DNA of 64,000 nucleotides from the NCBI GenBank assembly GCA_015059015.1, contig SVBG01000005.1:16724-80723 (forward strand). Reading direction: 5' to 3'. Below, in pieces: positions 1-13,310 of this stretch (positions are counted from its first letter, which is position 1; every line of letters begins with the position of its first letter). Position numbers and translations under genes: made by a program. Under the pieces are notes generated by a model that saw only the letters and a list, made by a program, of their open reading frames with translations, searched no databases and was not told the origin of the DNA. Origin of the DNA: Erysipelotrichaceae bacterium (lineage in GTDB: Bacteria; Bacillota_I; Bacilli_A; ML615J-28; CAG-313).

Positions 1-678
1 GTAGCTGATGATAAGGTTATTTGGAGTGAAAATAGTGATGTTACTATTTTTAAAACTAGTGATGTTACTGAAAATGGTGATGTTGTTGTTGAGTCTAATA
101 ATGGTAATAAGATAATTGCTCCTGGTATGGAGGGAAATTATCGTTTTGAAATTAAGAATTTAGGTAAGTTTGCGGTTGATACTACAACTGTTGTTTCTGC
201 AAAGCTTACTATTAATGATGAAGTGTTTGAAAATGCTCCTATTGAAGTACGTTTTACTAATTATAAAGGTGAAAGTGTCACTGAAGGTGGATGGATTAAT
301 GTTAATGAACTTACTGAATTTTATGATGAGTTAACTATCGCTAAGAGATCTTATGTTTATTTTAATCTTGATTGGCGATGGGTGTATGAAGGAAGTAATG
401 ATGAACTTGATACTTTACTTGGTAATTTAAGTGTAGATAATGATGTTAAGTTTACTGTTAGTATTGTTGCAGCTGCAACTAGAAGTGGTGATAAAAATGC
501 AACTGGTGGTATTCCTATTGGTGAAGTATCTCTTGAAAATGGTTTATTAGATATTACTCCATTTATTGTATTTAATGTTATTATCGTCCTAATTATTGTT
601 ACTCTTTCAATTCGTGAATATCATAATCGTAAAAAAGAGATTAGTAAGTATCGTATAGTTGAGAATAAGAATAAATAA
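1..678 (+). CDS. TasA/camelysin-like surface protein, 5'-truncated by the window edge, with C-terminal TM anchor
   Basis: Frame 1 is open from nt 1 (no stop before the ATG at 127), so the gene begins upstream. 'IAPGMEGNYRFEIKNLG' and 'LDWRWVYEG..DTLLG' resemble TasA/camelysin beta-sandwich strands. C-terminal hydrophobic helix PFIVFNVIIVLIIVTLSI is followed by a basic tail REYHNRKK. Confidence 0.5.
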   Translation, partial: VADDKVIWSENSDVTIFKTSDVTENGDVVVESNNGNKIIAPGMEGNYRFEIKNLGKFAVDTTTVVSAKLTINDEVFENAPIEVRFTNYKGESVTEGGWINVNELTEFYDELTIAKRSYVYFNLDWRWVYEGSNDELDTLLGNLSVDNDVKFTVSIVAAATRSGDKNATGGIPIGEVSLENGLLDITPFIVFNVIIVLIIVTLSIREYHNRKKEISKYRIVENKNK

Positions 679-705
679 TTATATTTAAGTTTTTGGGTGG
701 ACAAG

Positions 706-11000: not shown

Positions 11001-13310
11001 ATCGTTTCTCCTTCAACAGATTATGAAACTTCTAGACAATATAAGGTATATCAAATTATTCCAACTCGTAATACTTCGCTTGAAGAAGAAAATAATGGAA
11101 CATATACATTTACTGATGATAAAACATATTCTATTTATGATATCATTTTAACTAATACACAAAAACTACCAGACTTTAGTTATATTAGTTTATATGATGA
11201 TGATAGACAAAGTCTTGTAGAATCTAGTGTTATGAGTTTTAATATTAAAAAATTATCATTAAGACTAGGTTATAGACTTGGTAATGTTGCAGTATATGGC
11301 TATGATAAAGAACATGATGTATGGGAAAAAGTAACTGATATTAATGTAAATTCAGCTATTTATCAAGAATACGAAGTTGATTTTAAAGATTCCGAAGGTA
11401 ATTATCCTTATTACGCATATCGAATTGATAATACATCTACAAATGAAATAAGACTTACTAATATTGATGTTTTATCTGGTGTTAATGGGGTATTATATGA
11501 AGGAAATGTTGTTGATTTATTTGAAAAATCAGTAGATTCTGAAAATAAAATTTATACATATTCATTAGAACATGAAATAGTTGGTGATTCTAGACATGAT
11601 GGTAAAACATTTATGTTAGCAATTCAAGTAGCTGACGCGTCTAATAAAGAAATGCTTATTAGTGATATTGATGGTGGTATTTATATATTAATTAACGGTA
11701 TTGGTTTAAATATTAATCATTATGTTGCGTTAAACACTAATCGTGGTAAGAATACTGCATATCTTAACCTTACTGAGATAATTGAAGTTTTAAATGTTGA
11801 TGCAATTAATTTTAATATTGTAGTCCCTGCACAGTATCAAATATATACTGCTAGATTATTAGAAGTTACAAATGAATTTAAACCTGCATCAGGTGAAGTA
11901 AGAGTTGAATTTACACATCATCATTACTTTATTGATGGTGAATGTTACTGTGGTGTTGTAGATCCAACTTATGAATCTCCAATTCATGAATTTGCATTAA
12001 TGCTTGTTGGTGACTTCAATGCTGAAGGTGGAAATTCAGAAACAACAGTAGAAGAGTTCTATTCAACTTCTGCTAATAATATTAAAGATATTTGGACAGA
12101 TAGAACAATGCTACACAAATATCAATGGTTCTTAACTTATGTAAGAGATACAATTACTGCTCAAGCAACTCTTAATAATGCATTAACAGATAGTAATTAT
12201 CTAAATGCTATTGCAATGCTTAATGCAATGATTGTTGGTTATCACCCAACTGATATCTTTGATACTGATTATACAGCGGGTAGTGAACTTGTTAGATACT
12301 TTATTGAAAGCTTAATTAACTTTAAATCTCCTACACAAATTAGTGCACCTGTAAAATATTCTAAATTTATGGTTGATTATTCTGCTTCAGAATTTAGAAA
12401 TGAATTCTTAGCTGAATATGAAAAATCTAAAACTACAATCTATGTTCCAATATATAATAACTCTGGCTTAGCATCTGGTAATGAAAACGATACTATAAAT
12501 GTACTTTATTTATGTGCTAGTTCTATAGTTTCAAATAATAATTTAAAATATCAGTATAAGATTTTATTAAGTCAAGTTGGTTCTACAGATTATTATAAAG
12601 TTGTTGCATTAGATAACGCAACTGATACTGCTAATAATGTTGCATCTGCTGCTGGTGTAACTTGGACGCATGCTATAACTACAGCATATCAAATTGATAT
12701 TGTAGAATTATATGGACATTTATTAAATAAATATGTAGTTATGAGTAGTGAGGATATTGATAATACATATTCTGGATACCAATCATTTATTGAAGAATTT
12801 AAGAATCAAACATTTGAAGGTGGATTGTATGTTCCAATAGCTGATGAAGCACCTTTAGTTGGTTGGAGTGGAGATCCTGTAAGATCAATTTCGATAAAAG
12901 AATATGCTCATACTCGTATGCAAAATTCAACAGTTTATGAAAGTACTTATTTATGTCATTATAATTCAGTTGTTTATCAAGCGGGTTCAGGATATACACA
13001 ACAAAATAATCTTCAATATCAATATAAAATGTTATTACAATATGATGCTGAAAAAGGAGCTTACAAAGTTGTAGCTAAGAATACATCTTTTGATAATGTA
13101 AGTGCAAATAATCTTGCTACTAGTTTAGGAGTTACATGGATACTTGCAATTGCTTCGAGTAAGGTTGATGTTACTGCATATGCTAACGTTGGTCAATACA
13201 TTGTCTTTGAACGTAGTGGTGCTCAGATACATGGTGATGCATTAAATACTCTATCAGATCAACAAATTGGCTTAACAGCTAAAGTTTATAATGCTAACCA
13301 ATGGTATTAA
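5079..13310 (+). CDS. Giant (2743 aa) surface protein with GLUG-type repeats and a Listeria-Bacteroides-type repeat
   Basis: RBS GGAGG 7 nt upstream. N-terminal basic + TM segment. More than 12 spaced 'xGG[LIV]xG' units (AGGLAGV, AGGLFGS, VGGLIGY, AGGVIGL, AGGIIGK, CGGFTGE, IGGIVGR, CGGLVGL, VGGVIGA, AGGILGG, AGGIMGG, AAGILGF) between ~nt 5980 and 8170. 'FGYVFTGFYLVND...LTFYGRWSY' is a Flg_new-like repeat (~9935-10075). One HxHxF..G.C.CG..DP.Y unit at 11916-11981. Duplicated C-terminal module. No LPXTG. Confidence 0.75.
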   Translation: MKTRGNKKYFIMNIIAVTLVLLVTAFMFIYFNKTSSTVAAGENTIEIRVDKVTTVSIYAFGEGVELIESTNNYDVYTAKIGTNVRLQAVNETRIFENWVISNLTTGDVPTIADLTNNIINFTVTESMSDLSITVNRRNATQEDYGKYMTDRFIIVDEVDLIALQNILDGNGTDSDYSLFYENPESYNNDSKKAVLKEDLRFGYFLISNNFTVFNEKFTGLGTKTEPFQGIVCGKNNINSTIFLTINNVETPGESSYGLFRYLGNEALIRHLNVTTSIGINSPIEANLTNQQKNQYTSNAPIIYAGGLAGVMDRSTLINVTVSTSIGIASTYASNINAGGLFGSIKSGSGIDSVSDVTYDGTDSSWSIVSHKEGSIINAGLIAGSAVDSYIKEVDLIVTNQIVDLKNDSVTNRYTNSKLYLGNVFGTYVADTHAETIDDIMIMGDSGESLRAVTTNGDAAVGGLIGYVDGNQTGKLNIEKVYFRVLNDENEFTSSSIETSNVTNLYAGGVIGLIDGNNVIALEAFKDRFQEVDLDGENKINVANYLYEGNYTIETVQNGTSFAVTNGKSIAGGIIGKGYINLEGSLENRSDFAIASPTSTFTVEAVQAKLASTNGTFNDKEHACAALVYGSVGNNRVVISNINVYTNNTTINTTREIGTDAIGDLHTGGFISYATNSSFSNIGLYLNNSILIAESLSDLGHNSNEGTNSAFCGGFTGELDNNSSLTNVEFAGYDVNYLTITGTTSYLESIQNTKPAGVNINYGGENYIGGIVGRIQYSTLTSCKFYGSTTNKDYIRMNGHRSPDSAFCGGLVGLIRTGGTNLVSSVIDCEVRNTEVSGSATCTNTGYNDPDIYVGGVIGAAYIHGTGNNERITVSNCRLINSDVYALGNERIAAFAGGILGGSTWESSILVNNCYVTDSSVASNIVTTINYNKTLQSTAGGIMGGMKGDPADRYVNIQNSAVIDTNIEALVNSNDRTISAYAAGILGFRENSNQNSNRVVLNNCYSNAVITSNHNNGGTANVYGIAFNCSFTNNTYSYYLSKNVNSADNNLGVALASGPFEVTAYANNPYRSYNGLNGTYGYGQKLYIEKIGEANEFTITNALGTTPKVSASSDGITLAHVWININQNGGIDGSSNLIVPDHHDKETAAKNGWFILDYVLLYRGTIDSISSDLTDIDASYKNETSTYEHKYTDLDSDSINDHYLENIQNNSDKILNNYIEKDVVDNVKEFEFYVYDDMLSLNVEFNITHFSSNYRMLFKNTSDEIIDEGTFKQKYGSITLELVEKHTNSISDKYNLIFKPNEKLENDVTFFIYFVAGNSEYTASTSFKVTLHANKLTLVGVTYADYTPPVNYFEDQNMLGTNSLPYHLYVGSVTKFIPIFTKSNDLQQGIRYILEEYIEKCTYSVDNATDQYFDIHSNGELNTGNNVNQNGTLTVTYGTDTVTLYVLSVKEINVSYSVSGSDVEGLTVASNTTDFYFEQYIKSNYSGVPTSASITIGSTVYSIIDLNNKNANINVYEITKERAISNTPITSYNPNAYGYVIRVDNSLIINSVNNISVNIDYPIVYTITFKLQCETFNDSLDAEDLTKSFKIISGTSFKEYFTTDGVINPEITNWISDAELFGYVFTGFYLVNDANSIHSYGISFEELAASSYVVNSSLTFYGRWSYLIEIIEASGTYIKTGFNSAFMQEYTGDGFTRAIQIPINANQGYVFRVDTDASYVGRPGIEAYVVTKDGSGNKVMTEVEIETYQNNSSLYYIRPEYITGYLIIKTTVSNSDVIVGEHTSSITEDIAPEDGIITFKYIVNHVNKGDNKSYIYNLSSGKDYETLPIEFVLDFYKQSDHSDLVLPDLTEIRCYYNRYVNGSSTPEKTIIGTYITHNDDRVYLTEFKLLDLETPALATNRTFGDVLGNNETVTEIFYFTITPPNGYTNKVKNEIANYVVECGFVDGQSEPHQEINYLKGKRTETELANPNDLNDIVSPSTDYETSRQYKVYQIIPTRNTSLEEENNGTYTFTDDKTYSIYDIILTNTQKLPDFSYISLYDDDRQSLVESSVMSFNIKKLSLRLGYRLGNVAVYGYDKEHDVWEKVTDINVNSAIYQEYEVDFKDSEGNYPYYAYRIDNTSTNEIRLTNIDVLSGVNGVLYEGNVVDLFEKSVDSENKIYTYSLEHEIVGDSRHDGKTFMLAIQVADASNKEMLISDIDGGIYILINGIGLNINHYVALNTNRGKNTAYLNLTEIIEVLNVDAINFNIVVPAQYQIYTARLLEVTNEFKPASGEVRVEFTHHHYFIDGECYCGVVDPTYESPIHEFALMLVGDFNAEGGNSETTVEEFYSTSANNIKDIWTDRTMLHKYQWFLTYVRDTITAQATLNNALTDSNYLNAIAMLNAMIVGYHPTDIFDTDYTAGSELVRYFIESLINFKSPTQISAPVKYSKFMVDYSASEFRNEFLAEYEKSKTTIYVPIYNNSGLASGNENDTINVLYLCASSIVSNNNLKYQYKILLSQVGSTDYYKVVALDNATDTANNVASAAGVTWTHAITTAYQIDIVELYGHLLNKYVVMSSEDIDNTYSGYQSFIEEFKNQTFEGGLYVPIADEAPLVGWSGDPVRSISIKEYAHTRMQNSTVYESTYLCHYNSVVYQAGSGYTQQNNLQYQYKMLLQYDAEKGAYKVVAKNTSFDNVSANNLATSLGVTWILAIASSKVDVTAYANVGQYIVFERSGAQIHGDALNTLSDQQIGLTAKVYNANQWY

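Follow-up and report, generated by a model that had tools for sequence, protein, structure and literature searches.

A SipW-type operon of an Erysipelotrichaceae bacterium that probably encodes a cell-anchored heteropolymeric surface fibre

This study concerns an operon for signal peptidases and secreted proteins in an Erysipelotrichaceae bacterium (assembly GCA_015059015.1, contig SVBG01000005.1, positions 16,724 to 80,723). The DNA analysed, referred to as the window, is a 64,000-nt stretch, and the locus under study occupies its positions 1-13310 with genes that we labelled g1 to g7. Together with two upstream genes visible on an identical metagenome contig (L001; window position 1 is L001 8694), the operon comprises nine genes in the order sip0, F1, g1, sipA (g2), g3, sipB (g4), g5, g6 and g7 (Table 1). 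On balance, we consider it probable that this operon encodes a heteropolymeric surface fibre that is anchored to the cell and belongs to the TasA/BsaA superfamily type, along with its own signal peptidases and a giant protein. An earlier interpretation made from the nucleotide letters without database searches, the sequence-only reading, had taken the locus for a SipW/TasA-type fibre module. Among the parts of it that stood is the SipW-type surface-protein operon, whereas the expected similarity to TasA in hidden Markov model (HMM) searches was not found.

Results

A gene order shared among gut anaerobes

Relatives of F1, the probable major subunit, were sought in one genome per GTDB species, that is, in 185,579 species genomes, and approximately 395 stretches encoding them were recovered. 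Their hosts belong to the Oscillospiraceae, Acutalibacteraceae, Ruminococcaceae, Lachnospiraceae, Erysipelotrichaceae, Anaeroplasmatales and Coriobacteriia; nearly all of the stretches came from metagenome-assembled genomes (MAGs) of the gut or rumen, and the cultured Adlercreutzia sp. ZJ176 was among them. For 80 loci from these stretches, maps were drawn using the F1 and peptidase HMMs, and the counts given below refer to subsets of 57, 61 or 66 loci. The recurring order was SipW(S1) - F1 - F2 - SipW(S2) - F3 - (X) - giant - (Z), and the block S-F-F-S-F-(X)-giant was kept across Clostridia, Bacilli and Coriobacteriia. In 48 of 61 loci F1 was immediately preceded by a peptidase gene; 48 of 57 had two peptidases, and an open reading frame (ORF) of at least 1,100 amino acids (aa) was located within 8 kb downstream, again in 48 of 57. 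Per locus there are three to four paralogous subunit-like genes, the order of which is fixed across phyla. In sister loci the giant gene is followed by a gene of ∼190 aa (Z), and in 17 of 23 cases its product matched TIGR04090, the model for 'BsaA family SipW-dependent biofilm matrix protein', with E values down to 6.6e-12; the window has no Z. The idea that all seven window genes would form a conserved block thus held for the core only, because g4, g5 and g7 are conserved in close relatives alone.

Three SipW-like signal peptidases

All three operon peptidases exceeded the curated cut-off of TIGR02228 (archaeal-type signal peptidase I; SipW-like S26B; whole-protein HMM score of 51.85 bits), with scores of 71.1 bits for g2, 64.6 bits for g4 and 64.7 bits for sip0. 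The threshold of the Bacillus SipW equivalog NF046067 (at least 190 bits) was not reached by g2 (63.3 bits), g4 (46.7 bits) or sip0 (71.3 bits), and we classify the three enzymes as SipW-like rather than as SipW orthologues. The boxes TGSMEPT/VHRI and SYSMYPE/THKI are present in the two window peptidases, g2 and g4, and the S-M, H and D columns were kept in at least 97% of 97 aligned peptidases, including these two. The catalytic pattern of Ser and His (His in place of Lys) with a conserved Asp is common to all three. These data bore out the recognition of Ser and His boxes of the SipW/endoplasmic reticulum (ER) type in g2 and g4. The count of two peptidases in the operon was wrong, since a third one, sip0, is encoded upstream of the window.

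The mean identity of g2 was 0.41 to the S2 group versus 0.25 to S1, while that of g4 to either S1 or S2 was 0.32 at most. Three peptidases per locus were found in only 1 of 57 comparable loci, namely in L005, the closest relative of the window. By sequence comparison, g2 is assigned to S2 and sip0 to S1; the third peptidase, g4, is divergent and specific to the lineage of the window.

The probable major subunit and its N-terminal segment

The signal peptide of F1 ends in ...SGTFAKYVTTGAAGDEARVAKWGV. At E≤1e-3 the F1 family comprises more than 4,054 homologous protein clusters, among which no Pfam domain was found and the named members are all 'hypothetical'. In an alignment of 40 sequences, the most conserved part of the protein was the stretch that directly follows the predicted site of cleavage, and the residues T27, A29, K30, Y31, A41, V43, A44, K45, G47 and V48 were invariant. 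Further conserved features are APGT.G, G.PEV, YCP, W.W, D.KDT.LG and a strictly C-terminal TQ[VI]D; the family alignment, A1, carries the signature GTFAKY..ARVAKWGV ... APGT.G ... W.W..D.KDT.LG ... TQ[VI]D. The AlphaFold2 model of F1 is a β-sandwich with two helices (predicted local distance difference test, pLDDT, 78.9). The conserved N-terminal segment is predicted to be disordered (residues 25-41, pLDDT below 50), and it exceeds the folded domain in conservation.

At the other end of the protein, the final residue is Asn in place of Asp in 17 of 120 clusters. The very last residues of both F1 and F3 proteins are [TE]-Q-[VI]-D, and g3 has this ending as well (...KVEQVD, window 2511-2525); candidate roles for this terminus are those of an isopeptide residue or a metal ligand.

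Between F1 and g1, ∼300 nt upstream of the window, we found a GC-rich hairpin, AAGCCUGCCCC...GGGGCAGGCU, followed by a U-rich tail (L001 8387-8415), and folding of this intergenic region gave z = -8.2. The hairpin probably acts as an attenuator or partial terminator and thereby fixes the major-to-minor subunit ratio. An attenuator after the major-subunit gene is the usual means by which pilus operons over-produce their major subunit.

An anchor paralogue next to the probable major subunit

The g1 protein, which belongs to the F2 class, consists of an N-terminal transmembrane (TM) helix, a β-rich domain paralogous to F1, and a C-terminal hydrophobic helix with a basic tail, so that the TM and basic anchor previously noted at the end of this gene was confirmed. 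When aligned on its own with A1, g1 gave an hhalign value of 95.4% over residues 78-208, and the signal peptide lay outside this match. In the alignment, IIAPGMEGNY stands opposite vvAPGTxG and DWRWVYEGSNDELDTLLGNL opposite tWxWaFxGdDvKDTaLGnL; an HMM match of g1 (E 6e-7) likewise supports paralogy with F1. The F2 counterparts carry PxTG, a TM helix and a basic tail, i.e. a sortase sorting signal, in 41 of 66 loci, and a TM helix only in a further 7. Despite its C-terminal TM helix and basic tail, g1 itself has no PxTG and is not of the LPXTG type. A conserved N-terminal donor-like segment was found in none of 48 F2 proteins. Since its counterparts usually end in a PxTG sortase signal, we regard g1 as the anchor subunit, in line with the role that had been proposed for it.

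In some F2 genes, a ribosomal uL15-like domain follows the C-terminal TM helix (L009:1835-3016, L013:10838-12010 and L057:1662-2873; Pfam Ribosomal_L27A, 34-47 bits versus a cut-off of 21.5). The same ribosomal-like tail was recognised by eye in L011, L044 and L080, and this subset has no sortase signal. The tail of such anchor subunits is presumably cytoplasmic.

Proposed minor subunits

With F1, g3 has in common an N-terminal GLYARY...DDARVAKW and a C-terminal ...EQVD, and it contains ∼170 extra residues. Its relationship to F1 and its placement in F3 are supported by a blastp match of the N-terminus (E 2e-6) and by hhalign values of 94.7% to A1 (over 1-231) and 98.4% to F3. On this evidence, g1 and g3 are both classified as diverged paralogues of F1. 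The X1 family of g6 is a BLAST cluster of 21 sequences, including the Adlercreutzia protein of L064, and in many loci X1 genes adjoin the giant gene directly upstream. Membership of g6 is supported by an hhalign value of 96% over the first ∼100 residues. The two proteins of ∼400 aa that had been described as lacking any family therefore do have one: g3 is an F1 paralogue with an extension of ∼170 aa, and g6 belongs to X1.

As for g5, 83 homologues of mostly 212 aa were found, because of which its true start is probably nt 3110. A profile search returned only 47 representatives among 1.84 billion at E≤1e-3. The AlphaFold2 model of g5 (pLDDT 81.3) shows a β-sandwich behind the signal helix. To judge from its distribution, g5 together with the peptidase g4 is an insert specific to the lineage of the window. 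Matches of g5 and g6 to the F1 profile were confined to the signal-peptide region in hhalign. The motif A-[KR]-Y after the TM helix, which the sequence-only reading had pointed out in three proteins, is indeed present in g3, g5 and g6. The family alignments show it with little or no variation, and it is therefore not due to chance.

A fast-evolving giant protein

The last gene of the operon, g7, had been labelled a GLUG-repeat gene because of ten GGxxG motifs at residues 300-950. A regular expression, and only that, finds ten xGG[LIVF]xG motifs in this region; Pfam GLUG (PF07581) gave no match to g7 even at E≤1, and the label was not upheld. No Pfam, NCBIfam or PDB match and no significant internal repeats were detected in g7. 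It has only 30 homologues, which among the mapped loci occur in L001 and L005 alone, and its variable part is the C-terminal ∼500 aa. Forty of 51 giants from other loci are mutually related, with Flg_new repeats only, and most are not homologous to g7. We thus describe g7, as far as its sequence tells, as a fast-evolving giant that occupies the usual giant position but has no homology to its counterparts in most other loci.

Relationship to TasA and BsaA

When the PDB was searched for folds with the F1 model (Foldseek), the TasA fibre 8aur ranked first (E 4.1e-3, probability 0.96, TM score 0.32), followed by cannula subunits and chaperone-usher pilins. For the g5 model, the search listed CppB (5.8e-3), CfaB (6.5e-3), the TasA fibre at rank 3 (8.1e-3) and AbpA (2e-2), with CanA listed as well. 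The ends of the signal peptides are alike, GTWA↓AF in TasA and GTFA↓KY here. A third point on which the link to TasA rests is the BsaA-family gene (Z) in sister loci. One X2 protein gave a match of the TIGR04088/TIGR04090 type (E 4e-3). In Pfam and NCBIfam searches with all seven window products, matches were obtained for the two peptidases only.

Several results weigh against a relationship with TasA or BsaA. All Foldseek E values for the F1 and g5 models were above 1e-3, with TM scores of ∼0.3, so that the proposed structural check did place the TasA fibre among the matches of g5, but with weak similarity. Peptidase_M73 (PF12389) had no match at E≤1 to g1, g3, g5, g6 or g7, nor at E≤10 to 40 members of the F1 family; the profile-HMM check for TasA or camelysin similarity of the non-peptidase products was thus negative. 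No window protein matched TIGR04088 or TIGR04090 (SipW-cognate/BsaA family), and sequence searches of the PDB were empty for the F1 profile, the Z profile, g7, g3 and g6. For A1, hhalign against TasA gave 2% with the signal peptide kept and ∼0.1% after its trimming; the value for the alignment A2 was 1.8%. The alignment A3 reached 28%, only via the signal peptide and an NVxPGDxLT strand. Remote matches of the g5 profile are repeat proteins of the DUF11, DUF7507 and CARDB kinds, found via one strand motif, and summed Peptidase_M73 hits were seen in 2 of 4 such matches that were scanned; the motif, NVxPGDxLTYxFxVSN, which the sequence-only reading had picked out in g5, is generic for such β-sandwiches. 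The strands that had been called TasA/camelysin-like are thus real conserved motifs, yet without a Peptidase_M73 or TasA HMM match. No TasA-like domain was detectable in g7 or the other giants, for which reason an attachment of g7 to the fibre is purely inferred.

A chain of homology leading from F1 via F3 to Z, and thereby to the BsaA family, was considered and rejected. The hhalign value of F3 and Z dropped from 94.8% to 2.1% after signal-peptide trimming, and because of this collapse we do not claim membership of the BsaA family at the sequence level. The links that survived trimming were F1-F3 (95.9%, 66 columns) and F3-X2 (95.9%, 123 columns); X2 and Z gave 27.5%. Together, fold and genomic context make membership of the TasA superfamily plausible, while the sequence does not demonstrate it.

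Operon limits and neighbouring genes

The ORF map of 1-13310 shows seven co-directional ORFs on the + strand separated by 17-26 nt or overlapping slightly, in agreement with the close packing noted before. The overlaps g3/g4 and g4/g5 disappear with the gene-caller starts 2530 for g4 and 3110 or 3103 for g5. The hairpin at the operon end was the top terminator-like site within 1-16500, which corroborates the single strong terminator that had been placed near 13318. It is followed by a strong promoter-like site (13436-13464) that serves the next, unrelated gene, and the housekeeping genes gdpP-rplI-dnaB-prfA-prmC lie downstream.

An exact-sequence look-up of g3 led to 23 contigs. As seen on L001, 1.9 kb of the operon precede the window; its upstream boundary is marked by a terminator (L001 6585-6621), and a near-consensus promoter-like sequence, TTTACA-17-TATAAT, is located directly 5′ of sip0 (L001 6706-6734). 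Since the promoter, sip0, F1 and the start of g1 were found there, the operon has nine genes, of which the window holds genes 3 to 9. The supposition that the locus continues upstream was thus correct, and besides the promoter this stretch supplies sip0 as the third SipW-like peptidase and F1 as the probable major subunit.

The window DNA has a GC content of ∼28% and a uniform skew. A mobile element was considered and rejected, as the GC content is uniform and the flanks are housekeeping genes.

Table 1. Features of the nine-gene operon. Positions are those of the window unless L001 is given.
Feature	Position	Strand	Description
sip0	upstream of window, on L001		same operon; SipW-like peptidase, 239 aa; S1
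F1	L001 7632-8309		just upstream of window; 225 aa; probable major subunit
g1	1-678	+	last 225 codons (3′ part) of a gene for 279 aa (complete at L001 8532-9371); anchor subunit 'F2'
g2 (sipA)	697-1281	+	archaeal/ER-type signal peptidase I, S2 orthologue; gene callers start at 706
g3	1308-2528	+	406 aa; minor subunit of the 'F3' class
g4 (sipB)	2512-3087	+	divergent third archaeal/ER-type signal peptidase I; start probably 2530
g5	3080-3769	+	lineage-specific small secreted β-sandwich protein with LAKY signal; start probably 3110, giving 219 aa
g6	3796-5061	+	421 aa; 'X1' family; signal ...LTRYIY
g7	5079-13310	+	2743-aa secreted giant; putative distal adhesin
Hairpin terminator at operon end	13314-13345		14-bp palindromic stem, A/T runs on both sides

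Upstream of the operon, L001 2807-6577 encodes a surface protein of 1,256 aa with Flg_new repeats, Big_2 repeats and Amidase_2 (peptidoglycan amidase), which has its own terminator; we excluded this gene from the operon because the equivalent position varies among other loci. In an NCBI MAG copy of the locus (L002, GCA_045536115.1), positions 1-669 contain a fragment of an ISL3-family transposase where the contigs of the Joint Genome Institute have genes for phosphoenolpyruvate carboxykinase and a trypsin-like protein. Downstream, window 13485-15983 encodes a GdpP-like cyclic di-AMP phosphodiesterase (PAS-GGDEF-DHH-DHHA1) with extra N- and C-terminal domains of ribosomal protein L9 at residues 684-828, and a complete separate rplI is located directly 3′ of it (16001-16444). 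This arrangement could reflect duplication and fusion, or a mis-chosen ORF boundary.

Discussion

All non-peptidase products of the operon have an N-terminal membrane-spanning signal, which in the fibre subunits ends in a conserved x-A-[KR]-Y. In the mechanism that we propose, the products would leave the cell via Sec and be retained in the membrane through the helix at their N-terminus. The dedicated S1 (sip0) and S2 (g2) peptidases and the extra g4 would cut at x-A↓[KR]-Y, and cleavage would liberate the N-terminal segment, which is conserved and predicted to be disordered (KYVT..D.ARVAKWGV in both F1 and g3). The freed segment may then serve as a donor strand that completes the β-sandwich of a neighbouring subunit, for which TasA/TapA provides a published parallel (PMC9674648, PMC10151520). 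F1 would be the major subunit, with the attenuator-like hairpin 3′ of its gene, and g1, which lacks the donor segment and has a C-terminal membrane anchor (PxTG in most other species), would be the basal anchor. The g3, g5 and g6 proteins would act as minor or adaptor subunits, and g7, with its variable C-terminal region, as the distal adhesin.

Conceivably, the operon could be a maturation module without any polymer, in which independent surface or secreted proteins and a giant adhesin merely share SipW-type peptidases. The lack of sequence-level proof of a TasA-type donor-strand system would fit this view, as would the weak fold matches, which include non-polymeric β-sandwiches, and the lack of a recognisable subunit-like domain in g7. 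We nevertheless hold it to be unlikely, since the three to four paralogous subunit-like genes keep a fixed order from phylum to phylum, the N-terminal segment is missing specifically from one paralogue, which has an anchor, the disordered segment is conserved beyond the folded domain, and an attenuator-like hairpin follows one subunit gene; these traits are typical of pilus operons and thus argue against independent proteins. There is only a small chance, in our estimate, that the product is instead a released biofilm-matrix fibre, as in the case of B. subtilis TasA and C. perfringens BsaA, with g7 co-expressed as a distinct matrix or adhesin protein in the manner of BsaC. Matrix fibres are indeed what the nearest operons with a known product, tapA-sipW-tasA and sipW-bsaA-bsaB-bsaC, give rise to, BsaC is separately secreted (PMC11580942), and the giants are not homologous between loci. 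However, a paralogue anchored by a sortase signal or TM helix almost always adjoins the major subunit, and surface attachment is therefore favoured over release.

The PxTG sorting signals on F2 in most related loci, and the fact that the top match of the g5 model is a domain of the sortase pilin CppB, might suggest a Gram-positive pilus polymerised by sortase. This explanation is effectively refuted: the sorting signal is present on one protein per locus only and is absent from g1, in the window proteins Pfam finds neither a domain of the sortase-pilin type (e.g. SpaA or Cna-B) nor an LPXTG-anchor domain, no pilus-sortase gene appears on the locus maps (on which no sortase model was run), and the dedicated enzymes are S26 signal peptidases. 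A type IV pilus was likewise considered and rejected, there being no prepilin peptidase. A further reading, to which we assign low probability, is that F1, F2 and F3 form a separate unnamed clade of donor-strand pili, widespread among Clostridia, Bacilli and Coriobacteriia of the gut, in which two or three subset-specific peptidases order the assembly and a covalent bond locks the processed N-terminal segment (K-Y..., ...ARVAKW) to Q-[VI]-[D/N]. The idea of a covalent lock stems from the alternation of Asp and Asn at the C-terminus, the pattern expected of an isopeptide-forming residue, and it is speculation, guided by the analogy of BsaA and archaeal threads, that ...ARVAKW... and the C-terminal Q-[VI]-[D/N] mark such a lock or a metal site.

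The fibre operon proposed here resembles most closely the sipW-bsaA-bsaB(LPXTG)-bsaB2-bsaC cluster of C. perfringens (PMC11580942, PMC7395162) in having, in identical order, a SipW-type peptidase, a major subunit, a paralogue with a sorting signal, a further paralogue and a large secreted protein, and sister loci of the window include a TIGR04090 BsaA-family gene. BsaA is assembled by donor-strand exchange with an isopeptide lock, and LPXTG-bearing BsaB is found in most C. perfringens strains (PMC11580942). The donor strand of BsaA comes from a disordered N-terminal segment, and a disordered segment is predicted at the N-terminus here as well. The two systems differ in that there are two to three peptidases here against one in C. 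perfringens, and a terminal protein of 1,400-2,700 aa against a 70-kDa von Willebrand factor A protein; the window proteins match neither TIGR04090 nor Peptidase_M73. In addition, no N-E-K isopeptide triad was identified, and in its place there are ...ARVAKW... and the C-terminal Q-[VI]-[DN]. The published isopeptides are Asn-Lys in BsaA (PMC11580942) and N-terminal amine to Asn in archaeal threads (PMC9715654).

With the tapA-sipW-tasA operon of B. subtilis (8aur), the present locus shares a dedicated ER/archaeal-type SipW, a G-T-aromatic-A signal end and the top fold match of F1. It differs from TasA in the lack of detectable sequence similarity of the mature domain and in its many more components, including the giant. 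In B. subtilis, the accessory protein TapA serves initiation and anchoring; at the present locus the anchor is not TapA but a subunit paralogue bearing a TM helix or sortase signal. Operons with an anchor, minor subunits, a tip protein and their own peptidase are on record (PMC11580942; bioRxiv 10.64898/2026.01.04.697558), the AbpX and Tafi loci among them (bioRxiv 10.64898/2026.01.04.697558; PMC11821415). In contrast to AbpX, with its signal peptidase of ten TM helices, and to haloarchaeal Tafi, which uses twin-arginine export, the present locus has another subunit family and peptidase type, and a conserved pair of SipW-like peptidases interleaved with their presumed substrates. Chaperone-usher pili such as CFA/I (CfaB) and Pap offer a functional analogy, as they combine a donor-strand fibre with a tip adhesin, adaptors and a terminating or anchoring subunit. 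Pilin domains of CfaB and PapG were among the fold matches, with likeness at the level of the β-sandwich fold only, and no chaperone, usher or outer membrane is involved here.

We extend a known kind of system and do not found a new one, because its overall plan had been reported before from other clades of the TasA superfamily. The operon is an uncharacterised variant of a TasA-superfamily fibre operon, and its cluster type is widespread in gut anaerobes and unnamed in protein-family libraries. What is unusual are the two peptidase paralogues conserved across phyla and interleaved with their presumed substrates, the third peptidase in this lineage, the pairing of a near-invariant ...ARVAKW... 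segment with a C-terminal Q-[VI]-[D/N], and the very large terminal protein.

If the proposed function is correct, several hundred gut and rumen species of Firmicutes and Coriobacteriia would carry a surface-fibre system that has no name in annotation libraries, and one of the carriers would be a cultured Adlercreutzia isolate. The paired interleaved peptidases would offer a tractable test of whether cleavage of the signal peptides determines the timing or the order of donor-strand assembly. The combination of a sortase- or membrane-anchored base with a huge and fast-evolving distal protein would make the variable end a good candidate binder of host, mucus or partner cells. Such fibres would represent a third assembly route for adhesive fibres of Gram-positive commensals, beside sortase pili and type IV pili.

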